Shown here: one piece after another, positions 16,845 to 26,897 of the stretch
Numbering within the stretch: the first letter of the stretch is position 1
Layout: each line of letters opens with the position of its first letter
Source of the DNA: Rhodospirillales bacterium
GTDB lineage: Bacteria > Pseudomonadota > Alphaproteobacteria > Rhodospirillales > 2-12-FULL-67-15
Direction: 5' to 3'
Assembly: GCA_016872535.1 (NCBI GenBank)
Contig: VGZQ01000002.1
Location: 9,514 to 73,513, forward strand
DNA length: 64,000 bases
The notes under the pieces: generated by a model
What the model was told of the DNA's origin: nothing
Seen by the model: the letters and a program-made list of their open reading frames with translations, nothing else
Database searches by the model: none
Program-made: the position numbers and the translations under genes

Positions 16845-17225
16845 TCAGTCCTGGGTCGTAAGTTTGGGAGGTCGGTATTCGGGGTGGACGATCCGCGCTG
16901 GTCCAAGATCGATGGCCGCCCACCGCACGACGCCCGCTTCGTCGTCGGACACGACCGCACTTGCGCGCGGCGGTCCGGCAAACGAGCAGTGGGCGCTGGC
17001 TTCGCACTGCTGGACGATGTTGTGGCTGTTTTTGGGCAAATCGTGGTCACTCGATCCGGCAACGCCGATGACAGCCATCCTGCTCGCATCCGCTTGGGCG
17101 GACGAAAGGTGGCCGTAATGAAGGAGAACGCCGAACGCAACCAGCAGACCCATAACGGCGCCAAGCCAACGCCCCCGCGCCGGCCAGCAACCGCGTCGCC
17201 TCCTGTCGTCGTCTCCGCCCGTCAC
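16845..17225 (-). CDS. Small exported-type leader ORF 3 (CxxxxxC, C-terminal PEYRPPK); candidate stalling uORF
   Basis: GTG start; basic N-terminus plus hydrophobic segment, QQCEASAHCSF, ends HPEYRPPKLTTQD, 77 nt before pmtA. Confidence 0.6.
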   Translation of the reverse strand: MTGGDDDRRRRGCWPARGRWLGAVMGLLVAFGVLLHYGHLSSAQADASRMAVIGVAGSSDHDLPKNSHNIVQQCEASAHCSFAGPPRASAVVSDDEAGVVRWAAIDLGPARIVHPEYRPPKLTTQD

Positions 17226-17454
17226 GTCCCGATCCCTTACGTCCGCCGATCTCGGATGTGCCCCGGAAAACCCTTACGATGGTGACATCCCGCAGTCAAA
17301 ATATATCCCTGGGCCCGACGCAAATCGAGAGCCTCCGTTTACTTCCATATGCCGTGGGGCGTGTGGCTCCGTTGATCTCGCGAATTGCGAAACCACACCC
17401 CCGACTTGCCGCCGGATTTAGTCCACGATCGATATCAACCGGCGTCGCAGATCC

Positions 17455-18003
17455 TCATTGCTTGGGCATGCCCGGCATGGGTGCCGCCCCGGACCCTTGC
17501 CCCATACCCTGACCTGGCCCCATTCCTGACCCGGGCCCCATACCCTGTCCCATGCCTTGGCCCATCGTGCCCTGGCCCTGGGGCATCGATCCGCCGCCCA
17601 TCATTCCCCCGCCCATATGGCCGGGCGGCATCATTCCGGGTTGCATCATTCCCTGGCCCGTCATACCCCCGCCGCCGGGCGCCGCCGCGCCGGGCTGAAT
17701 GGCGACGCCGAGCTTGTCGAGAGTCGCCTTGTCGGGCTCGCCGGTGACGGGCAGATGGTGCTGCGACTGGTACTTGCGGACCGCCTCGCGCGTCGCGCCG
17801 TCGAGCACGCCATCGGTCTTGACCGCGATCCCTTGCTTGTTGAGCGCCTCCTGCAGCGCCTTGATGGTGGCCGAAGAAAGCCCCGAAGGCGCGGTTGGCG
17901 CCGGCGCCTGGGCGAAAACGGGAACCGGCGTCCCTCCGGTCACTCCGGCCGCCAGCACAACGGCCGCAATCGCAATCAAACGCGGGATCATCGAAGTCTT
18001 CAT
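17455..18003 (-). CDS. Exported peptidoglycan-binding domain protein with Met/Gly/Gln-rich tail
   Basis: Signal peptide; IKALQEALNKQG..DGVLDGATREAVRKYQSQHHLPVTGEPDKATL (PG_binding_1); tail of GM(G/P)QG repeats; AAGGA SD. Confidence 0.85.
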   Translation of the reverse strand: MKTSMIPRLIAIAAVVLAAGVTGGTPVPVFAQAPAPTAPSGLSSATIKALQEALNKQGIAVKTDGVLDGATREAVRKYQSQHHLPVTGEPDKATLDKLGVAIQPGAAAPGGGGMTGQGMMQPGMMPPGHMGGGMMGGGSMPQGQGTMGQGMGQGMGPGSGMGPGQGMGQGSGAAPMPGMPKQ

Positions 18004-18056
18004 GGCACGTTTCCTTTCATGGTTGGCGAAAATCCCCTCCAGGCACGCACACGACC

Positions 18057-18767
18057 TCAAAACCAGAATCGCACGCCGGCGACGACCGAGCGGTTGTCCG
18101 CCCGGTTCCCCTCTTCGCGCGCGTAGTCGGCGGCCTGGCCGAGCTTCCGCTCCCAATGGAAGCCGACGTAAGGCGCAAATTCGCGGACGATTTCGTAACG
18201 CAAGCGCAGGCCGGCGCTGACTGAATCGACGCCGGAGCCGACGTGACGCTCCTTGACGCTTTGCACCGCCAAATTGATCTCGGCGCTCGGTTGCAGGATC
18301 AATTTCTGGGTGACGAGCCAGTCGGTCTCGCCCTTGAGCCGGGCCGACACCTCGCCCTCATGGCTGACGAAGGCCGCGGCGTCGACCTCGATCATGTATG
18401 GCGCCGTTCCTTGCGCGCCGAACACGGCGAAGGTGCGATCGGGGTCCGGCTTGATGTCCTGGCGCAAACCCACCACCGCGTCGAAAAAATCCGAGACTCG
18501 GCGGCTGTAGAGAAGCTGGAATTCCCCTTTTTCCAGTTTGCCGTCGTTGGGCTTTTCGCCTTCGGCCTTGATTCGAATCTTGTCGTCGTCGGTGCCGATC
18601 CAGCCTTCGGCGTCCCAGGCGAGATTGTCCTTGCCGGTGCCGCTCCGGTATTCGAGCTGCTCGGCCTGAACGAACGTAAATATCTGTCCGGGCTCGGCGG
18701 CATCCACCGGCGACACGGACAAGGGCGCGACGATCACGGCGGCGAGCAAACGGTACATTTTCGTCAT
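18057..18767 (-). CDS. copB: Copper resistance protein B (outer-membrane barrel)
   Basis: EQLEYR, WDAEGWIG.D.DK, QLLYSR, FDAVVGLRQD, GLRLRYEIVREFAPYVG, GVRFWF; ATGA overlap with the copA stop. Confidence 0.93.
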   Translation of the reverse strand: MTKMYRLLAAVIVAPLSVSPVDAAEPGQIFTFVQAEQLEYRSGTGKDNLAWDAEGWIGTDDDKIRIKAEGEKPNDGKLEKGEFQLLYSRRVSDFFDAVVGLRQDIKPDPDRTFAVFGAQGTAPYMIEVDAAAFVSHEGEVSARLKGETDWLVTQKLILQPSAEINLAVQSVKERHVGSGVDSVSAGLRLRYEIVREFAPYVGFHWERKLGQAADYAREEGNRADNRSVVAGVRFWF

Positions 18768-20482
18768 GTGCTCGCCCCCTTCGGCCCAACAATGAAGCGA
18801 GTCATCATCCCCGATGCCATGTGGTACATGAGGTGGCAATGGAACGGCCAATCGCCCGGTTCGTCGGCGGTGAGCAGGGCCGAGACTTCTTGCCCCGGCG
18901 GCACGACGACCACGTGCTTGAGCGGCCGGCGGTCGGTTTGCCCGTTCTCCACCTCGACGAACATCCCGTGCAGGTGCATCGGGTGCGCCATCATGGTTTC
19001 GTTGACGAACTTGATCCGCACCCGTTCGCCGTATTTGACGCGGATCGGTTCTTCCTTGCCGAACGGGCGGCCGTTCAGGTTCCACATGTAGCGATCCATG
19101 ATCCCGGTGAGGCGGACCTCAATCTCCTGGCTCGGTTCGCGCGCGTCCGCGTTCTTAGCCGCCGAACGGAGATCGGCGTAGGCGAGCGCCTTCTGGCCCG
19201 GCGGCGTCGCGGCATCCGCCCAGCCGAATGGCCGCTTGCCGCTGGCGTCTTGGGTCGTTGGCATGGCGCCGTGCCCCATGGCCGAATGGTCCATCCCGGG
19301 CATGGACATCTTGCTGTGGTCCATGCCGGACATGGCGCCGCCTTGGCCCATCGCCCCATGGCCCATCGCCGAGTGATCCATACCGGCATGCGCCGCACCC
19401 ATGTCGGCCATGCTGAGGATGGTGCGCGGGCGCTGTTCGGGGATCGCCCCTTCCATCCCTTCGCGGGGCGCGAGCGTCGCCCGGGCATAGCCCGAACGGT
19501 CGATCGGCTCGGCGAAGACGGTAAAGGCCTTGTCCTCGCGCGGCAGCACGATCACGTCGTAGGTCTCGCCGACGCCGAAGCGGAACTCGTCGACGCGGAC
19601 CGGCTGGACGTTCTGGCCGTCCGCCGCAACCACCGTCATCGGCAAGCCCGGAATCCGCACGTCGAAGAAGCTCATGGCCGAGGCGTTGATGAAGCGCAGC
19701 CTGACCCGCTCGCCCGGCTTGAACAGCGCCGTCCAGTTGTCGCGAGGGCCCTTTCCGTTGACCAGAAAAGCGTAGCCGGTGACGTCGGCAAGATCGGTCG
19801 GGTCCATCCGCATTTCGCCCCATTCGAGGCGGTCCTTGAGCGCGGCGCCGAAGCCGTCGCGGTCCGCGTCGCGGAAAAAGTCGACCAGCGTCCGCTTGCC
19901 CCGGTTGTAATACCCGGCGTTGGCCTTGAGCTTGGCCATCACCCGCATCGGGTCTTCCTGGGTATGGTCGGAAAGCGCCACCACATAGTCGCGGTCGGCG
20001 CGGACGGGATCGCGGCCCCGGGGCTCGATCACGATTCCCCCGTACATGCCGGCCTGCTCCTGCAAGCCGGAATGGCTGTGGTACCAATAGGTGCCGCTCT
20101 GGCGGAGCTTGAAGCGGTAGGTGAAGGTCTCGCCCGGCGGGATCGGAGCAAATCCGTTGAATCCCGGCGCGCCGTCCATGTCGCCGTCGAGCAGCAGCCC
20201 GTGCCAGTGGATCGAGGTCGATTCCTTGAGACGGTTGGTGGCCTGGATGGTCACTTCTTCGCCTTCGCGCCAGCGCAACGTCGGCGCCGGAACCGAACCG
20301 CCCATCATGACAGCGTTGCTCTCGATTCCGTCGACGACGATCCGGCCCGCCTCGACGGCAATCGCGTATTCTTTCGTCGCCGAGGCGAAGCTGATCCGGC
20401 CGGGATAGACGGCGACGAGGCCGGCCGCGCCGGCGAGCTTGAGCGCGTTCCGCCGGGAAAGGCCGTGAAGATCGGTGGACAT
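18764..20482 (-). CDS. copA: Copper resistance multicopper oxidase (Tat-exported)
   Basis: SRRNALK Tat motif, SIHWHG, YWYHSHS, MDHSxM repeats, HPMHLHG, HCHLMYHMASGM. Confidence 0.96.
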   Translation of the reverse strand: MSTDLHGLSRRNALKLAGAAGLVAVYPGRISFASATKEYAIAVEAGRIVVDGIESNAVMMGGSVPAPTLRWREGEEVTIQATNRLKESTSIHWHGLLLDGDMDGAPGFNGFAPIPPGETFTYRFKLRQSGTYWYHSHSGLQEQAGMYGGIVIEPRGRDPVRADRDYVVALSDHTQEDPMRVMAKLKANAGYYNRGKRTLVDFFRDADRDGFGAALKDRLEWGEMRMDPTDLADVTGYAFLVNGKGPRDNWTALFKPGERVRLRFINASAMSFFDVRIPGLPMTVVAADGQNVQPVRVDEFRFGVGETYDVIVLPREDKAFTVFAEPIDRSGYARATLAPREGMEGAIPEQRPRTILSMADMGAAHAGMDHSAMGHGAMGQGGAMSGMDHSKMSMPGMDHSAMGHGAMPTTQDASGKRPFGWADAATPPGQKALAYADLRSAAKNADAREPSQEIEVRLTGIMDRYMWNLNGRPFGKEEPIRVKYGERVRIKFVNETMMAHPMHLHGMFVEVENGQTDRRPLKHVVVVPPGQEVSALLTADEPGDWPFHCHLMYHMASGMMTRFIVGPKGAST

Positions 20483-20496
20483 GGCGCGATCCCTCC

Positions 20497-21042
20497 TCAC
20501 CATCCGCCGCTAAAGTCGAGCTTGCCGACCATGCCCGCCTCGTAATGGCCGGGAATGGTGCAGGCGAATTCGAGTTCTATCGCCTTGGAGAATTTCCAGA
20601 CCAGCTCGGCCTGCTTGCCCGGCTCAACCAGCACGCTGCCGGTTTCCGGGCCGTGGTCGTGCGCGGCCATGCCCATCTTGGCGTGGTCCATCTTCATCAT
20701 GTCCTTGTTGATCCCGGTCGCCGTAATCATGCCGTGGTCCATCATCATCTTCATCATGTCCTGGTGTTTGGCGTGGTCGTTGGGCTGGCCGAGCGCGAAC
20801 TCGTGCAAAAGATCGCCCTTGTTGACGATGACGAAGCGGACCGTCTCGCCCGCCTTCACGGCGACGGTTTCCGGTTCGTAAAGATTGTCCTTCATGATGA
20901 TGGTGACGGTGCGGGTCGTGGACGTGGCTTTGGCCACTTCGCCGAAGGGGTGTTTCTGGGCCGGGCCGGCGAGGGCGGCGCCGGCCCCAAGCGTTATGAG
21001 GCCGAAAACGGCGGCGACGAAACTTGAGCGAATCATATGCAT
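20497..21042 (-). CDS. Cupredoxin (CopI-like) with Met/His-rich insert
   Basis: Signal peptide; LLHEF, HQDMMKMMMDHGM...MMKMDHAKMGMAAHDHG, FACTIPGHYEAGM type-1 copper loop. Confidence 0.92.
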   Translation of the reverse strand: MHMIRSSFVAAVFGLITLGAGAALAGPAQKHPFGEVAKATSTTRTVTIIMKDNLYEPETVAVKAGETVRFVIVNKGDLLHEFALGQPNDHAKHQDMMKMMMDHGMITATGINKDMMKMDHAKMGMAAHDHGPETGSVLVEPGKQAELVWKFSKAIELEFACTIPGHYEAGMVGKLDFSGGW

Positions 21043-21156
21043 GACGCGTGCAATCCTTGTCTGGTGTTGAAGTCGAACGGATGGCGCTCACGCGCGAGCT
21101 GCGGCCCGGCCGTTCAAGCCCGGCACGGCTAAAGACGCGCGAAGAGCGGATTTAGA
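21043..21156 (-). promoter_or_regulatory. 114-nt structured leader, copy A (between uORF stop and cupredoxin ATG)
   Basis: 108/114 identical to 23330-23443 (hand count); contains GAACGG/CCGTTC and GCTC/GAGC nested stems and the SD AAGGA. Confidence 0.8.
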
Positions 21157-21504
21157 TCAGGAAGCGCGCGGAGGGCGCAGCGGCGGCGCGGACGAGCCGA
21201 GCGGAACGAAGGTGTCGGGCGCCAGCACCGAAACGGTGGCTGGCGCGCGGAGGACGGTTCCGGACGGAATCGGCGTCACGGCCGAAAACGAGCAGCCGGG
21301 CGGGCAGCAGCGGTCGATGCCGCCAGCAGAGTTTTCGTCGCACGAACCCAGCAGGGCTTCGGCATCGCTCCCGACGTGCGCGGACGCGGAAACTATCGGC
21401 GAGCCTGCCGTTTCGTGCCCGGGCGCGGCAACGCCGGCCAAGCCCCACAGCAGGGTCGCGGCGACCGCAAAGGCGGAAACGATTTTACGGAACCGGCGCG
21501 ACAC
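21157..21504 (-). CDS. Small exported-type leader ORF 2 (CC-x3-C, C-terminal PPLRPPRAS); CutF/CruR-like candidate
   Basis: GAGGA SD then GTG 21504; MSRRFRKIVSAFAVAATLLWGLAG signal-like N-terminus, DRCCPPGCSF, SSAPPLRPPRAS. Confidence 0.75.
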   Translation of the reverse strand: MSRRFRKIVSAFAVAATLLWGLAGVAAPGHETAGSPIVSASAHVGSDAEALLGSCDENSAGGIDRCCPPGCSFSAVTPIPSGTVLRAPATVSVLAPDTFVPLGSSAPPLRPPRAS

Positions 21505-21668
21505 GCAAATATTTCCTCGGACGTTCCTCGCCCACGAGCGGGCGAGAGGCGTGGATAGCAAAAGCGGATTCTAAAGACAAGCCGAAAAAGGGCCATCTTC
21601 AATCACAAGCGCGAAATCCGTATTCCCGCCAAAAACTGTTTCCCATTGCAAACTCCATGGTCTTCGTC

Positions 21669-23261
21669 TCACGTCCTCACGGCGCGAAGGGTCGCCCAGA
21701 GGGCGGCGGCAAAGCCGAGAACGCCGAGCAGCGGCACGTCGGCATAGTCGCCGAAGACGTGAGGGCCGATGTCGTACTGGAGGAGCAAGGAAGAAGCGAC
21801 GAATAAACCCATCGACACCAGCGCGAACGCCACCCGCCGGCCGCCGCGCTCCACGGCGTCCTCGACGCGATCGATACCGTGAAGACGCAAGCCGAACTCC
21901 GGTCTTCCTCCTTCGCCCTGGAGCCGGTGGAGCCAGGCGCCAAGCAGCGCCGGTAAATCCTCCGCGGTCATTGCGGCTTCGCTCTTCAGCCGCTCCATCT
22001 TGCCGGTGCTCTGCGATTGCCGGAGGGTAGTCTCGAATATCTTTTCGCCCTTGGCCAACAGTTCCTTGACGAGGATGTATTCGGGATCGAGGCTTCGTAC
22101 CGTGCTTTCGATCAGAAACATGGTGCGCAAAAGGACGAGCAGATTAGGCGGAATGGTCACACTTTCGCCGCGCCCGATCCGCAAGATTTGCAGAAAGGCC
22201 TGGGCGATCGACAGATCGTTGAGCGGCAACGCGGCGTAATCGGCCATGATCTCGTCGAAGGCGCGCCGGAATTCCGCGCGATCGACCGCCGCGTCGATCA
22301 CGCCGAGGGCAATCGCCGTGTCGAGCAGCCAAGCCGAGTCTTGATGGGCGAATGCCTGCGTGAACAGCGCAAGATTTCGACGCGTTGCGCGGTCGAGATA
22401 GCCGGTCAGACCGAAATCGTGAAAGCAGATGCGTCCCGAGTTCATGATAAACAAATTGCCCGGGTGCGGATCGCCGTGGAAGACGCCGAGCACGAAGAAC
22501 TGGTGGAGATAGGCGTCAACGAAATTATCGGCCAAGCGCCGTCTGTCTTCGTCGTTAATCGGATCGTCAACGCGGCGGCCACTGCTCATCTCCTGCACCA
22601 GGACTGACTCGGCGCCGAGTCCGTCGATCACTGTCGGTACATGCACCGTCTTCCAATCCTTGAAGGCCTCCTTGAAACGCCGGGCGTTGCGTGCCTCCCG
22701 CCGGAAGTCGGTCTCGTTGCGGAGATTGGTCCAGGTCTCCTCCACCAGGCGAAGCGGGTGGTAGCGGCGGAGACGAGGGGCCAGAAGTTCAGTCGCGCGC
22801 GCGAACATCCGCAGCATGCGCATGTCCCGGCGGATTTGATCCTGAATCCCCGGTCTGCGCACTTTGACGACCACCATCCGTCCGTCGTGGAGGCGTGCTT
22901 TGTGCGCCTGCGCGATGGAAGCGGCGGCGAAGGGGACCGGATCGAATTCCGCAAACAACTCGGCGATCGGCCGGCCGAGCGCCGTTTCGATCTCGCGTAT
23001 CGCCTTCGCGGCGGGAAAAGGATTTACATGCTCATGAAACCGTTGCAGAGCCTTGATGTAGTGGTCCGGCAGCATTTCCTGGTGCAAGCTCAGGATTTGG
23101 CCGAACTTGACGAACGTCGTGCCAAGCCGTTCGAGGGTCACGGCGAATCGCTCCGCCAGCGTCGGCAAACGCCGGGGACGAAACAGGTACAGATAGAGGG
23201 CGTGAACCGCGAAATTCGCCGCCGCGAACCCAACGCGCAGCAACCGGCCGATAAACATCAT
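21669..23261 (-). CDS. ABC1/UbiB/AarF family atypical kinase
   Basis: LERLGTTFVKFGQILS, FAAASIAQAHKA, VVVKVRRPG, DFRREA, VFHGDPHPGNL, HDFG, C-terminal TM helices. Start re-placed at ATG 23261. Confidence 0.9.
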   Translation of the reverse strand: MMFIGRLLRVGFAAANFAVHALYLYLFRPRRLPTLAERFAVTLERLGTTFVKFGQILSLHQEMLPDHYIKALQRFHEHVNPFPAAKAIREIETALGRPIAELFAEFDPVPFAAASIAQAHKARLHDGRMVVVKVRRPGIQDQIRRDMRMLRMFARATELLAPRLRRYHPLRLVEETWTNLRNETDFRREARNARRFKEAFKDWKTVHVPTVIDGLGAESVLVQEMSSGRRVDDPINDEDRRRLADNFVDAYLHQFFVLGVFHGDPHPGNLFIMNSGRICFHDFGLTGYLDRATRRNLALFTQAFAHQDSAWLLDTAIALGVIDAAVDRAEFRRAFDEIMADYAALPLNDLSIAQAFLQILRIGRGESVTIPPNLLVLLRTMFLIESTVRSLDPEYILVKELLAKGEKIFETTLRQSQSTGKMERLKSEAAMTAEDLPALLGAWLHRLQGEGGRPEFGLRLHGIDRVEDAVERGGRRVAFALVSMGLFVASSLLLQYDIGPHVFGDYADVPLLGVLGFAAALWATLRAVRT

Positions 23262-23329
23262 TTCATGGCATCCATGTCTGCAGGGGAAGCATCCGATTGA
23301 AAGGTGAACTTCGAGCGGATCGTACGCAT
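23258..23329 (-). CDS. 23-aa mini-ORF MRTIRSKFTFQSDASPADMDAMK, putative translational coupler
   Basis: ATG at the same position as the cupredoxin ATG in leader copy A; first codons resemble MHMIRSSF; its TGA overlaps the kinase ATG (ATGA). Confidence 0.55.
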   Translation of the reverse strand: MRTIRSKFTFQSDASPADMDAMK

Positions 23330-23443
23330 GACGCGTGCAATCCTTGTCTGGTGTTGAAGTCGAACGGATGGCGCTCGCGCGCGAGCTGCGGCCCGGCCGT
23401 TCAAGCCCGGCGCGGCTCAAGACGCGCGCAAAACGGATTTAGA
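23330..23443 (-). promoter_or_regulatory. 114-nt structured leader, copy B
   Basis: Direct repeat of 21043-21156, same length, 6 substitutions. Confidence 0.8.
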
Positions 23444-23830
23444 TCAGGAAACGCGCGGAGGACGCAAAGGCGGCGCGGATGAGCGGAGCGGAACGAAAGC
23501 GTCCGGCGTCAGGGCTGGAATGCCGGATGATTCGTGAAAAACGATTCCCGAAGGTGCGGCTGTCATCGCCGAAAAGGCGCATTCCGGCGGACAGCAGCGG
23601 TCGAATCCGCCGCCGTAACCGTGGAGGGAATTTCGGTCGCACGAACCCGGGGCGGCGTCGACGACGTGTCCGCCTTGCGCGGACGCAGCGATTCCGCCGG
23701 TCGACGCTATCATCGGCGAACCCGTCATTTCGTGTCCTGGAACAACTGCGCCTGCGAATCCCCAAAGCAAGGTCGCAGTGACCGCGAACATGGAAACGAT
23801 TCGCCGGATTTGGCGCGGCAGACGGATCAA
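23444..23830 (-). CDS. Small exported-type leader ORF 1 (CC-x3-C, C-terminal PPLRPPRVS); paralog of leader ORF 2
   Basis: GGAGAG SD then TTG 23830; RRIVSMFAVTATLLWGFAG, DRCCPPECAF, SSAPPLRPPRVS. Confidence 0.75.
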   Translation of the reverse strand: MIRLPRQIRRIVSMFAVTATLLWGFAGAVVPGHEMTGSPMIASTGGIAASAQGGHVVDAAPGSCDRNSLHGYGGGFDRCCPPECAFSAMTAAPSGIVFHESSGIPALTPDAFVPLRSSAPPLRPPRVS

Positions 23831-23912
23831 CTTTCTCTCCGGGACTTGCCCTCGATCATGAAATGACGGACGTTGCGTTCTGTCAAGCGCGCCCGCGAAG
23901 GACAGCCGCAAG

Positions 23913-24575
23913 ATGAGCAAATTCACCCGCCTCGACGAACGCCTGCACGATTACCTGGTCGCGGTCGGGACGCGCGAGCATCCCGCCCTCGCGCGTCTTC
24001 GCGCCGAAACTGCGACCATGCCCAAGGCGGGCATGCAGATTTCCCCCGATCAGGGGGCGTTCATGCAATTTCTCGTGCGGTCACTCGGCGCGCGGGCGTG
24101 CCTCGAAATCGGCGTGTTCACCGGCTACAGCTCGCTGGCGGTCGCGCTGGCGCTGCCCGCCGACGGGCGGCTCACCGCCCTCGACGCGAACGCCGAATGG
24201 ACCGCCGTCGCCAGGCGCTATTGGGCCGAAGCCGGCGTCGCCGACAAGATCGAGTTTCGCCTCGGCCCGGCGGCCGGCTCCCTCGACGCCCTTCTCGCCG
24301 AAGGTCGCGCCGGAACGTACGACTTCGCCTTCATCGACGCCGACAAGGAAAACTACGAGCCGTACTTCGAGCGCTGCCTCGCGCTCGTGCGTCCGGGCGG
24401 CGTGATCGCCGCCGACAACGTGCTGTGGGACGGCGCGGTGATCGATCCCAAGGATACCGACGCGGATACCGAGGCGATCCGCGCTTTCAACCGCGCCCGC
24501 CACATCGACGAGCGCATCGATCTCTGCCTGGTGCCGATCGCCGACGGGCTTACGCTTGCCCGCAAGCGCGGCTGA
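23913..24575 (+). CDS. O-methyltransferase (Methyltransf_3, caffeoyl-CoA OMT/MdmC-like)
   Basis: MQISPDQG, LEIGVFTGYSSL, YDFAFIDADKENY, GGVIAADNVLWDG, PIADGLTLARK. Confidence 0.93.
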   Translation: MSKFTRLDERLHDYLVAVGTREHPALARLRAETATMPKAGMQISPDQGAFMQFLVRSLGARACLEIGVFTGYSSLAVALALPADGRLTALDANAEWTAVARRYWAEAGVADKIEFRLGPAAGSLDALLAEGRAGTYDFAFIDADKENYEPYFERCLALVRPGGVIAADNVLWDGAVIDPKDTDADTEAIRAFNRARHIDERIDLCLVPIADGLTLARKRG

Positions 24576-24601
24576 TCGCCGAGGATCGCTTAATCACTTG
24601 A

Positions 24602-25603
24602 TCACTTCGGCGCGAATTCGGGAAAGGCGCGCCTCAGGTTGCGCTCGATGCGCTCGCGCACCGGAAGCTCGGGCTCGACCGGGACGAATTCCTGGCCGGT
24701 CATCTGCTCGTAAAGGCGCACGTACTTGGCGCTGAACTCGGCGAGCGTCGCGGGCGGAATTTCGGGGATCGGCTCCTTGTAGGGATCGCAGCGCGCCGCG
24801 ATCCAAAGTCTCAGGAATTCCTTGTCGAGGCTGTCGGGTTCGAGGCCCTGGTCCGCGCGCTCGGGATAGGTGGCGGCGATCCAGTAACGGCTGGAATCGG
24901 GCGTGTGAATTTCGTCGGCGACGCGCAGCCTTCCTTCGCGGTCGAGGCCGAATTCGTACTTGGTGTCGACCAGGATCAACCCTTGCGCGGCGGCGAGATC
25001 CCGCCCGCGCCGGAACAGCGCCATGCCTAAGCGCTCGATCTCGCGCCAGCGATCGGCGGGCACCAGGCCGCGCGCGACGATCTCGGCGGCGGTGATCGGC
25101 ACGTCGTGGGCGGTCGCGCCTTTGTCCGTGGTGGCGCCCTTGGTGGTCGGCGTGATCAGGGTCGCGGACAGGCGCTGGTTCTTGCGCATGCCGTCGGGAA
25201 GCCGGTGGCCGTAAACGACGCGCGCGCCCGTCGCGTATTGGGTCCAGATGCTGGTCGAGGTCGCGCCGGTGAGATAATCGCGCACCACCACCTCGACCGG
25301 GATCATGTCGAGCTTGATCCCGACCGTCACGTTCGGGTCCGGGTAGGCGAGCACGTGGCTCGGGCAGACGTCGGCGGTGGCGTCGAACCAATAGCGCGCC
25401 GTTTGCGTCAGCACTTGGCCCTTGAACGGAACCGCCGCCAACACCTGATCGAACGCCGACTGGCGGTCGGTCGCGATCATGATCCGCCGGCCGTCGGGCA
25501 GGTCGTAGGAATCGCGTACCTTGCCGCGCTGGAAATTGGGCAGCCACGGAAAGTGAGCGTCGGTCAGACAGCGGCCGAGGCTGTTCAAGTAATCGATCAC
25601 CAT
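24602..25603 (-). CDS. purC: SAICAR synthase, long (Ade1/plant-like) family
   Basis: RGKVRD, TDRQSAFD, PFKGQVL, IPVEVVVRDYLTG, LVDTKYEFG, ADEIHTPDSSRYW, LDKEFLR. Confidence 0.92.
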   Translation of the reverse strand: MVIDYLNSLGRCLTDAHFPWLPNFQRGKVRDSYDLPDGRRIMIATDRQSAFDQVLAAVPFKGQVLTQTARYWFDATADVCPSHVLAYPDPNVTVGIKLDMIPVEVVVRDYLTGATSTSIWTQYATGARVVYGHRLPDGMRKNQRLSATLITPTTKGATTDKGATAHDVPITAAEIVARGLVPADRWREIERLGMALFRRGRDLAAAQGLILVDTKYEFGLDREGRLRVADEIHTPDSSRYWIAATYPERADQGLEPDSLDKEFLRLWIAARCDPYKEPIPEIPPATLAEFSAKYVRLYEQMTGQEFVPVEPELPVRERIERNLRRAFPEFAPK

Positions 25604-25667
25604 GCGCGCTCCCGAACCTATTTCCCCTGTTGCCCCGCTCGGGCCCGACCGCTAGCTTCCGCCGATC

Positions 25668-26897
25668 ATGCCCGCTTTGACCCGCACGCTCGCGGCTCGC
25701 GTGTTCGTGCCTTTCGCGGTCGGCTATTTCCTTTCCTACCTGGGCCGGGTTGTCAACGCCGTGCTGGCGCCGCGCCTGATGGCCGAATTCGATCTCGGCG
25801 CGGCCGATCTCGGCTTTTTGACCAGCGTCTATTTCCTGGCCTTCGCCGCGTTCCAACTGCCGCTCGGCATCCTGCTCGACCGCTTCGGGCCGAAGCGGGT
25901 CGAAGCGGCGTTGATCCTGGTCGCGGCCCTCGGCGCCTTCGGATTTGGGATGGCGGGCGGGCTGGCCGGGCTCGTTTCGGGTCGCGCCCTGATGGGGCTC
26001 GGCGTTTCCGCTTGCCTGGTGGCGCCCTTCACCGCCTACCGCATCTGGTTTCCGGCCGCACGGGTGCCGCTCGCCAACGGCCTCCTGATGTCGTGCGGCG
26101 GCCTCGGCGCCATCGCCGGCACCGTGCCGGTCGAGGTGACGCTCGGATTCGTCGGCTGGCGCGGCGTGCTGATGCTTTATGCGCTGGCCATCGTCGCCGC
26201 CGCGGCCCTGATCTACCTTGTCGTTCCCGACGACGGCCGAACCGGCAAGCCGCCGCCGCTCGCCCGCCAGTTGCGCGAGCTGGTCGGCATCCTGCGCGAT
26301 CCCTTGTTCGTGCGCGTGGTCGGCTCGACCGCGTTGATCCAGGGATCGTTCATCGGCCTGCAGAGCCTGTGGGTCGGCCCGTGGCTCGCGGACGTCGCCG
26401 GGCTCAAGGGCCCGGCCGTCGCCGATTATCTGCTCTGGATCGCGCTCGGCATGACCTCGGGCTACGCCGCCATGGGCGCGATCGCCGACCGGCTGGCGCG
26501 CCTCGGCATCGCCGCGCACACGGTCGCGCTGGCGGCGACCGTCGGCCTGCTCGCGACCCAGGGCGCCATCGTCCTGCTGCCGCCCGCCGAGGCGGCGCCG
26601 CTCTGGGTCCTGTTCACGTTCCTCGGCGCATCGAACGTGTTGTGGTATTCGGCGTTCTACCAGAGCTTTCCGCTCGAGATGGCCGGCCGCGCCGCGACCG
26701 CGTTCAACGTCTCGGTTTTTCTCGGAACCTTCGCCTGCCAGTGGGGCGTCGGCGTGGTGGTCGATTTCTGGCCGCGCGGCGCGGACGGATCGTATCCGCC
26801 GGAAGCCTATCGTGCCGCGTTCGCGGCGCTGCTCGCGGCCCAAACCGCCGGACTTGCCTGGTACATGCTCAAACGCCGGGCGAAATTTCGCACCTGA
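25668..26897 (+). CDS. MFS transporter
   Basis: About 12 hydrophobic segments; motif A GILLDRFGPKRV. Confidence 0.9.
   Translation: MPALTRTLAARVFVPFAVGYFLSYLGRVVNAVLAPRLMAEFDLGAADLGFLTSVYFLAFAAFQLPLGILLDRFGPKRVEAALILVAALGAFGFGMAGGLAGLVSGRALMGLGVSACLVAPFTAYRIWFPAARVPLANGLLMSCGGLGAIAGTVPVEVTLGFVGWRGVLMLYALAIVAAAALIYLVVPDDGRTGKPPPLARQLRELVGILRDPLFVRVVGSTALIQGSFIGLQSLWVGPWLADVAGLKGPAVADYLLWIALGMTSGYAAMGAIADRLARLGIAAHTVALAATVGLLATQGAIVLLPPAEAAPLWVLFTFLGASNVLWYSAFYQSFPLEMAGRAATAFNVSVFLGTFACQWGVGVVVDFWPRGADGSYPPEAYRAAFAALLAAQTAGLAWYMLKRRAKFRT

Follow-up and report, generated by a model that had tools for sequence, protein, structure and literature searches.

Layout of the duplicated copper locus

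The DNA analysed here, called the window, is a 64,000-nt stretch of contig VGZQ01000002.1 (assembly GCA_016872535.1) from a Rhodospirillales bacterium, and window coordinates are used throughout. It contains a copper locus, all of it on the minus strand, in which a small upstream open reading frame (uORF) and a 114-nt leader occur twice, as copies A and B. Each leader is the exact spacer from the stop codon of the small ORF to the next ATG.

Copy A has the order uORF A, leader A, copI, copA, and copB. uORF A (21157..21504, 115 aa) was taken from the ORF list, starts with GTG, has the Shine-Dalgarno (SD) sequence GAGGAAA upstream, and encodes a protein with 87% amino acid identity to P0002 of the closest relative, locus L001; the program-made ORF list extends it to 134 aa. 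Leader A (21043..21156) is followed by a copI-like cupredoxin gene (20497..21042; NCBIfam CopI 4e-61, under the equivalog cutoff; Pfam Cupredoxin_1 and Copper-bind), the copA multicopper oxidase gene with a Tat signal (18764..20503; TIGR01480 1e-215), and a copB-like gene from the ORF list (18057..18767, start approximate), Pfam CopB having been matched on the syntenic gene of L001, L002, and L030.

Copy B has the order uORF B, leader B, a copI remnant, and an ABC1/UbiB-like kinase gene. uORF B (23444..23830, 128 aa, TTG start) was taken from the ORF list and is orthologue-like to P0003 and P0004. Leader B (23330..23443) leads into a 23-codon ORF (23258..23329), which shares homology with the start of copI over its opening 8 codons (MRTIRSKF vs MHMIRSSF). 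The TGA of this remnant overlaps the ATG of the atypical kinase gene (21669..23261; Pfam ABC1 1e-67; TIGR01982 2e-99, under the equivalog cutoff) as ATGA, so the kinase may be translationally coupled and thus under the copper cassette of copy B.

Single-copy relatives carry a divergent O-methyltransferase gene, the uORF, and copI-copA-copB, with no ABC1 gene at the locus. In the window, the gap between uORF B and the divergent O-methyltransferase gene contains the promoter-like sequence TTGACA-N17-TTTCAT (23858..23886), read from the sequence. Its −35 and −10 words are conserved in position in L001 and L002 (TTGACA-N17-TTTCAT/TTTTAT) and the spacer sequence varies; a strict consensus scan did not return the site. 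It is regarded as a putative promoter, and copy B, next to it, occupies the ancestral position. Upstream of copy A (21505-21668), only a weak TTGTCT-N17-TATCCA and a 7-bp GC hairpin (CUCGCCC...GGGCGAG) were seen. Copy A may be transcribed by read-through; the conserved TTGACA-N17-TTTCAT, present 5' of copy B and of the single-copy cassettes of relatives, is missing 5' of copy A.

The small upstream ORFs and their protein family

Family members with a full N-terminus have a basic n-region and a hydrophobic run of 16-24 residues (mostly 17-20), with the look of a Sec-type signal peptide, as judged from the sequence. The n-regions read RRFRK and RQIRR; in uORF B, LIRLPRQIRR is followed by a 20-residue hydrophobic run. 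Two cysteines, C66 and C71, are invariant (Cx4C) and mostly lie in DRCCPPGC[SA]F; CCPPGC, which also contains CxxxC, is found in about half of the members. From the family alignment and the motif table, the motif is CCPPGC in uORF A (21292..21309); from alignment A4 and the motif table, it is CCPPEC in uORF B (23579..23596). The Glu of uORF B (23582-23584) is Gly in the other 11 sequences of alignment A4 (CCPPGC / C..SGC), which could mean relaxed or altered metal binding in the copy before the kinase.

At the C-terminus, the proteins end in APPLRPPRxS-stop, with RPP invariant and APPL and the next Arg nearly invariant. The family alignment places this arrest-like motif at 21160..21189 in uORF A (APPLRPPRAS) and at 23447..23476 in uORF B (APPLRPPRVS, then the stop). 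The final 10 residues are the best-conserved part of the protein. In 17 of 18 family proteins, the last Cys and the Arg of RPP are exactly 39 residues apart, and the PP is followed by 3 residues. By contrast, the stretch from the signal peptide to the Cys motif differs in length by tens of residues among the members. The original prediction, made from the letters of the window, had placed a ribosome pause at RPP. With the invariant RPP within APPLRPPRxS, the fixed Cys distance, and the published CutF and CruR systems, such an arrest site is plausible, and the idea matches a published class, for which CutF and CruR set the precedent.

Both uORFs have all the features of the rule-based CutF-like definition of Ozturk et al. 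2023 (PMC9973294): less than 150 aa, a signal peptide, a metal motif, PP in the last 15 residues, and a metal-homeostasis gene downstream. Neither window protein reached the gathering threshold of Pfam DUF2946 (PF11162; 23.7 bits). Collinear, full-length, sub-threshold matches to DUF2946 were obtained for three relatives (E 0.007-0.04; P0014 and P0015 at 15.1-17.6 bits), and a remote kinship of the window proteins with DUF2946 is possible.

The family is rare. Relatives were returned by a word-indexed search (5), by a profile search (14), and by HMMER over 1.8 billion representatives (6 clusters). The GTDB species genomes gave one locus, L006, from a Rhodospirillales metagenome-assembled genome. 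A protein-pattern scan of metagenome contigs gave no relative, and a DNA-pattern scan for the C-terminal motif gave 14 loci with no family member among them, most being apparently out-of-frame GC-rich matches. One short ORF on a human-gut metagenome contig (L017:5203-5286) ends in SPPLRPPRFS-stop, has none of the other family features, and could be an accidental match or else a uORF of arrest type with no relation to the family.

In all 15 compared leaders, a spacer of 109-117 nt lies 3' of the uORF. The next gene is a cupredoxin gene in the 12 loci called with Pfam, and the predicted N-terminus is copI-like throughout; CopA and CopB follow copI wherever the contig of the relative extends. The exceptions to an intact copI are the remnant of copy B and a fusion of the copI 5' end in L010. 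In L010 (1367-2276), a PG_binding_1/Met-rich gene that usually lies 3' of copB carries at its 5' end, as a fusion, the uORF, the leader, and ~20 initial codons for a CopI-like signal peptide (MHSTRTVFAAAALGVSFLAF); copI-copA-copB is missing there. The uORF, the leader, and the first copI codons have thus moved as a unit in two independent rearrangements, copy B and L010.

In other relatives, the gene 3' of copB (L001:9479-10027, L030:8507-8947, L002:8646-9107) encodes a PG_binding_1 protein with a long Met/Gly/Pro-rich tail containing MMPPGHGMM repeats. The CopI protein of the window has a Met/His-rich insert (HQDMMKMMMDHG...MMKMDHAKMGMAAHDHG). Both segments are likely to bind Cu(I) in the periplasm.

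A conserved hairpin in the leader

All 15 homologous leaders fold into the same long imperfect hairpin of ~64 nt, which starts 4-17 nt past the stop codon. In the window, it spans leader nt 9-72, corresponding to 21085..21148 in leader A (−34.7 kcal/mol; folding and covariation) and 23372..23435 in leader B (folding and alignment). Its helix P1 joins leader nt 16-21 to nt 61-66. The leader is built of a short pyrimidine-rich tract, the hairpin, a G-poor A/C-rich tail, the SD, and the ATG. The SD AAGGA lies at leader nt 99-103, outside the hairpin and 11 nt 5' of the ATG in both copies (21054..21058 for copI, preceded by the tail at 21059-21084; 23341..23345 in leader B). The hairpin z-scores were −1.0 to −4.1, somewhat biased since the segment boundaries were set after the folds had been seen.

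RNAalifold on 7 distant homologues recovered the hairpin, with compensatory changes in 7 of 22 pairs. The covariance model built from those 7 only (R1) matched both window leaders over their full length (E = 2e-6 for A and 1.6e-5 for B), as well as L007, L013, L001, L002, and L015, and had no other match in the window. In alignment A8, 90.5% of the cells were paired (28-52% in slid controls) and 17 of 22 pairs were changed on both sides (0-6 in slid controls; 0 of 500 shuffles reached the observed value), the pair counts being somewhat inflated by the model guidance of the alignment. Based on the covariation in the 15 leaders, the hairpin fold is under selection. The original prediction had also held the RNA fold to be under selection; this part stood, with the difference that the selected structure is the hairpin at nt 9-72, which does not include the SD, and not the fold that had been proposed.

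The six differences between leaders A and B all fall within the hairpin, and each keeps or adds pairs: C11U and C13U give G-U pairs, U32C turns G-U into G-C, U26G adds a pair, and U15G and U67C jointly replace a U/U mismatch with a G-C pair. The hairpins contain 1-5 G-U pairs each, and the sense strand is more stable than the antisense strand in 13 of 15 leaders, which indicates an RNA structure, not a DNA palindrome. A DNA palindrome or operator, or an antisense RNA, was considered unlikely for these two reasons and because the sequence varies with the pairing kept.

Other elements of the fold were less consistent. The basal helix of the hairpin (P0) pairs GAGC with GCUC at leader 10-13; an extension of it, CGCUC/GAGCG, is weakly supported (69% paired vs 39-50% in slid controls, no covariation). 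A second small hairpin after the main one (helix 5 of R1) was 75% paired and was dropped. Single-sequence folding of the 161-nt segments gave z-scores of +0.80 and −0.35 and different minimum free energy (MFE) folds for the two copies. With MAFFT plus RNAalifold on 13 leaders, misalignment of the apical hairpin left the outer CGCGC/GCGCG stem as the sole structure recovered. No Rfam family matched the leaders at E ≤ 1 (scan of 17000-26000). In the leader type of L001, L002, and L015, the start region reads GGAUGACAUGCGUCAUGCA (e.g., L001:6449-6466), where AUGAC could pair with GUCAU in a small hairpin that takes in an upstream AUG and some of the SD; this is absent from the type in the window.

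A further conserved word, UUCCU, runs across the stop codon of the uORF at 21159-21163 in copy A and at 23446-23450 in copy B. UCC encodes the terminal Ser in 13 of 14 leaders, although its general usage is 23% (AGC and UCG make up 68%), and the codon before it ends in U in 11 of 14, with GCU, GUU, and CUU at 4-12% usage. As both choices run against codon bias, UUCCU-stop is conserved at the nucleotide level, which favours an RNA-level role for the word.

Recombination between the two leaders

As the original prediction had noted, 21043-21156 and 23330-23443 are equally long and have 6 mismatches. These fall at leader nt 11, 13, 15, 26, 32, and 67 (94.7% identity), and the 8 nt 5' and the 42 nt 3' of the hairpin are identical. 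Its observation that the uORFs have diverged by indels and substitutions held as well: indels of 18 and 12 nt were found, with 62% nucleotide identity in the ORF body and 60% amino acid identity between the proteins. The repeat is far above chance (306 nt in blastn, E = 3e-77).

On both flanks, L001, the closest relative, is 93% identical to the window. In the uORF body, A is 88% identical to L001 and B is 86% identical to L002, against 62% between A and B; in the last 75 nt of the uORF, A and L001 are 97% identical. In the leader, the identities are 64% for A and L001, 71% for B and L002, 84% for L001 and L002, and 95% for A and B. The first 24 nt of copI are 96% identical between A and L001, and those of the copI remnant of copy B have 67-75% identity to all others. 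In 30-nt steps along the alignment of A and L001, the identity was 77-100% across the aligned uORF from ~21488, with 97-100% in the last ~120 nt, fell to 50-77% exactly from 21158 to 21043, and was back to 97% at 21042. The L001 leader is another sequence type, common to L002 and L015, and the nearest other leader to those of the window is that of L007 (73-76% identity).

By these segment identities, the two trees disagree: A groups with B in the leader, but with L001 in the uORF, where B groups with L002. That the leaders are nearly identical is the result of recent intragenomic recombination (gene conversion) and not of purifying selection alone, which is insufficient because a genome that is 7% diverged has a leader that is 36% different. 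The original prediction had mentioned recent gene conversion in brackets, as an alternative to selection; the segment and sliding identities against the relatives back it, and leader A is the apparent conversion tract. The crossovers sit in the conserved uORF 3' end and in the ribosome-binding and start region, their ends lying in flanks conserved in all leader types (left, …CGCGC[C/T]TTCCTGATCTA; right, CAAGGAT…GCGTCATGC).

Each leader is also nearly spanned by a 35-aa ORF on the plus strand (21048-21155 and 23335-23442). The leader was rejected as a coding sequence, these ORFs included, as no frame or peptide is conserved among the homologous leaders; three of the six A/B differences alter the plus-strand peptide. 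The ORFs are taken as a by-product of the GC-rich sequence.

Pairing of the Shine-Dalgarno sequence and the flanking tracts

It had been proposed that the SD region (AAGGAUU) pairs with AAUCC just after the uORF stop or with UCCU across it, closing nested stems, and that a ribosome paused at RPP frees the SD. The complementarity is literally present, and the duplex is no better than chance. The best stop-region/SD duplex has −10.3 kcal/mol, which is not above chance because 10-13% of random 32-nt windows of the same strand equal or beat it (copies A and B). Among 13 leaders, the duplex was above chance in two, L012 (15 bp, p ~0.02) and L011 (12 bp, p ~0.04); a Fisher combination of the per-leader fractions, done by hand, gave p ~0.15. 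Neither UCCU/AGGA nor AAUCC/GGAUU showed covariation. In partition functions, L012 had a pairing probability of 0.8 between the SD and the stop region and copy A one of 0.4-0.55, with values of ~0 for copy B and most other leaders. Sequestration is well predicted for L012 and L011 only and moderately for copy A, and is absent from copy B and most homologues; it is not supported as a general trait of the family. With the footprint of an RPP-stalled ribosome forced single-stranded, the mean unpaired probability of the SD rose only from 0.40 to 0.45.

The complementary words of the proposed nested stems, GAACGG/CCGUUC and GCUC/GAGC, likewise exist, but were not confirmed as a favoured fold. Across the homologues, 59% of the cells were paired, the same as in slid controls. 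The conserved hairpin is incompatible with GAACGG/CCGUUC and with the inner-stem GCUC (leader 57-60)/GAGC. The nested-stem fold of the leader alone is 15-18 kcal/mol worse (−22.3/−25.6 vs −40.0/−41.1 kcal/mol with the conserved hairpin); it does appear in the MFE fold of copy B in the 161-nt context.

The hairpin is flanked by G-poor sequence: G makes up 6% of the tract 5' of it and 11% of the tail 3' of it, but 36% of the hairpin itself; the unstructured tracts beside it are 8-17 nt and 18-33 nt long. In 11 of 11 loci, a C>G bubble peaks at the uORF stop, with a mean (C−G)/(C+G) of +0.24 to +0.34 there and +0.19 to +0.22 in the tail. The G-poor flanks would fit tna-like blocking of Rho and would also fit the need for an unstructured ribosome-binding region. 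An intrinsic terminator or attenuator was rejected, as neither leader has a terminator-like site or a U tract, the hairpin being followed by UGAGCGCCAUCC.

Comparison with known systems

The likeness to CutF, CruR, and CopL is drawn from published descriptions. In R. capsulatus, nascent exported CutF, encoded in the cutFOG operon, binds Cu via CxxxC, with ~45 aa between the Cu motif and the C-terminal GPPPRL. Cu-bound CutF is arrested longer at the C-terminal PPP (…GPPPRL-stop), and the oxidase gene behind a stem-loop is translated (PMC9973294; bioRxiv 10.1101/2025.02.05.636593). The window shares with CutF a small uORF peptide of Sec-exported type with a Cys motif ~40-45 residues before a C-terminal proline arrest motif, a position directly 5' of a periplasmic copper-detoxification operon with a multicopper oxidase, an alphaproteobacterial host, and an intergenic stem-loop. 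Both GPPPRL-stop and LRPPRxS-stop consist of a proline motif followed by Arg and one or two residues. The differences are that the CutF stem-loop contains and shields the SD, whereas here the SD lies ~27-40 nt 3' of the hairpin, in the G-poor tail; that the spacer is 109-117 nt and the first regulated gene is a CopI-like cupredoxin gene instead of an oxidase gene; that RPP and APP are present instead of PPP, and Cx4C/CCPPGC instead of CxxxC alone; and that the window proteins reach no Pfam DUF2946 score.

CruR of B. pertussis (bp2923) has a RAPP motif and acts through Rho-dependent termination across a 162-nt spacer (PMC9426467). Common to CruR and the window are a DUF2946-like uORF that has a Cys motif and, 3 residues before its stop, an arrest motif; a lengthy GC-rich spacer with structure (162 nt in CruR vs 114 nt); and a C>G bubble that extends over the 3' portion of the uORF and on into this spacer. 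CruR has RAPP and CXXC, whereas here LRPP is preceded by [S/A/G]APP and the RAPP pattern is not matched. It is also reported to be independent of a signal sequence, and Cu lowers the expression of a TonB-dependent transporter through Rho (PMC9426467). The opposite regulatory sign would be expected in the window, because the downstream genes are resistance genes.

CopL of the Xanthomonas and Stenotrophomonas copLAB genes is likewise a small ORF directly 5' of copA-copB. According to the summary of Ozturk et al. (PMC9973294), it is needed in cis for copper-induced CopA expression and is grouped with CutF-like proteins; it differs in its sequence cluster and gammaproteobacterial context. The TnaC, SecM, and RAPP-type peptides (ApdA, ApdP; PMC10987492) share an Arg/Pro-rich C-terminal arrest motif near the stop and cis control of the next gene, and differ in the signals sensed (tryptophan, secretion activity). 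SecM-like peptides are exported and sense pulling force, and TnaC blocks Rho beside its own stop codon. The tested RAPP-type consensus (R/Q/H)-(A/G/D)-(P/G/S)-(P/G) is not exactly matched by LRPP or [S/A/G]APP (PMC10987492).

Interpretation and alternatives

The locus is best explained as an arrest-peptide copper cassette of the CutF/CopL/CruR type that was duplicated, with its leaders homogenised by recombination; a probability of roughly 70% was assigned to this reading. The cassette is a rare subfamily of a known kind of regulatory device, uncaptured by Pfam and Rfam, and not a new mechanism. By analogy with CutF, periplasmic Cu bound to the Cys motif during export of the peptide would prolong arrest at RPP. 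The arrested ribosome would cover the last ~30 nt of the uORF, including UUCCU, with its leading edge at about the stop codon and not at the hairpin, and the outcome would be raised expression of copI-copA-copB. In copy B, the ABC1 kinase would be under the same control through the coupled remnant ORF. For the output step, the lifting of a block to translation at the ribosome-binding site of copI was given a little less than even odds, and protection from Rho-dependent termination was thought distinctly less probable; both together or another mechanism would account for the rest.

Several points weigh against the arrest-peptide cassette. Copper dependence, export, and arrest are read from motifs and from other systems and are accordingly putative. 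The hairpin does not include the SD, unlike the CutF stem-loop, and the motif is RPP/APP and not the experimentally tested RAPP or PPP. The uORF proteins had no meaningful match in Pfam or NCBIfam, and none in Pfam at E ≤ 1. The SD is ~40% unpaired in the predictions with or without a stalled ribosome, and in most homologues the stop-region/SD duplexes are no better than random windows (combined p ~0.15, as given above). Alignment A8 is model-guided and leans to the structure of the model, and the family sample amounts to ~9-10 independent lineages.

Two alternatives concern the way in which the arrest would act. Sequestration of the copI SD by an anti-SD at or after the uORF stop, as in the original prediction, draws on the pairing probability of 0.42-0.55 in copy A, the long duplexes of L012 and L011, the nucleotide-level conservation of UUCCU, and the SD-shielding stem-loop of CutF. 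It is nevertheless improbable in this form: its inner stems clash with the covariation-supported hairpin at a cost of 15-18 kcal/mol and are paired as often as slid controls, its SD helices lack covariation, the duplex energy is beyond chance in just two leaders, and the pairing is missing altogether from the predictions for copy B, whose leader is the same. A tna/CruR-type attenuator would leave the SD constitutively open, with the G-poor, C-rich tracts at the end of the uORF and on either side of the hairpin as a split Rho-loading site from which an RPP-arrested ribosome blocks Rho, letting transcription proceed into copI-copA-copB. The G-depleted hairpin flanks, the C>G bubble at the uORF stop of all 11 loci (mean skew up to +0.34), an SD that is mostly unpaired in predictions, a long spacer of conserved length, and the precedent of CruR, where a DUF2946 uORF with a 162-nt spacer works via Rho (PMC9426467), all suit such an arrangement. 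Against this, Rho sites are not reliably predictable, the Pro and Arg codons of the motif account for part of the C-richness, the tracts free of structure are short, and Cu lowers expression in CruR, so that a resistance operon, which needs the opposite sign, would require a CutF-like effect of Cu on the arrest. The attenuator was considered possible but rather unlikely. A broader version, somewhat more doubtful still, treats the module of stop-UUCCU, pyrimidine tract, hairpin, G-poor tail, and SD as an undescribed class of leader RNA that joins a CutF-like sensor to a tna-like output and is a portable cassette. There, the arrested ribosome would block the split Rho-loading site flanking the hairpin and give copper-induced antitermination, and recombination would have put the module before unrelated genes on two or more occasions, once with the ABC1 kinase of the window and once with the PG_binding/Met-rich protein of L010.

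Two other alternatives were weighed. If the small ORFs encoded ordinary periplasmic Cu-binding proteins acting in trans, the hairpin could be an mRNA processing or stabilising element or a cistron insulator. The Cys motif, signal peptide, and genomic context suit a periplasmic Cu protein, and the hairpin with its single-stranded pyrimidine-rich flank could be an RNase E site with a protective 5' hairpin. A simple binding protein would, however, not be expected to have its C-terminal 10 residues most conserved or the distance from Cys to RPP fixed at 39 residues; UUCCU is conserved as nucleotides, copy B and L010 each show the uORF, the leader, and the start of copI moved as one, and CutF and CopL do not act in trans. 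These points make the explanation quite improbable. Very strong purifying selection after an old duplication, in place of recent recombination, would agree with the selected hairpin and with the structure-compatible nature of the six differences. Yet L001, with 93% identity in the flanks and 96-97% beside the leader, has a leader of only 64% identity that belongs to the L002/L015 type; the leader tolerates large sequence change, the leader and uORF trees conflict, and a reading by purifying selection only is already contradicted by the segment and sliding identities. Hardly any weight is left for it.

Significance

Copper sensing by nascent exported peptides was described in 2022-2025 for CutF and CruR, two model systems with differing outputs. 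The exact spacing of 39 residues between the Cys motif and the arrest motif is a prediction of a pulling-force or tunnel-length sensing model. Because the covariation-supported hairpin excludes the SD, the SD-shielding picture of CutF is not simply transferable to this alphaproteobacterial subfamily. For annotation, uORFs of this kind escape Pfam, and their leaders can be homogenised by gene conversion. The natural rearrangements, in which the uORF, the leader, and the first copI codons have moved as a unit, define the minimal cassette.

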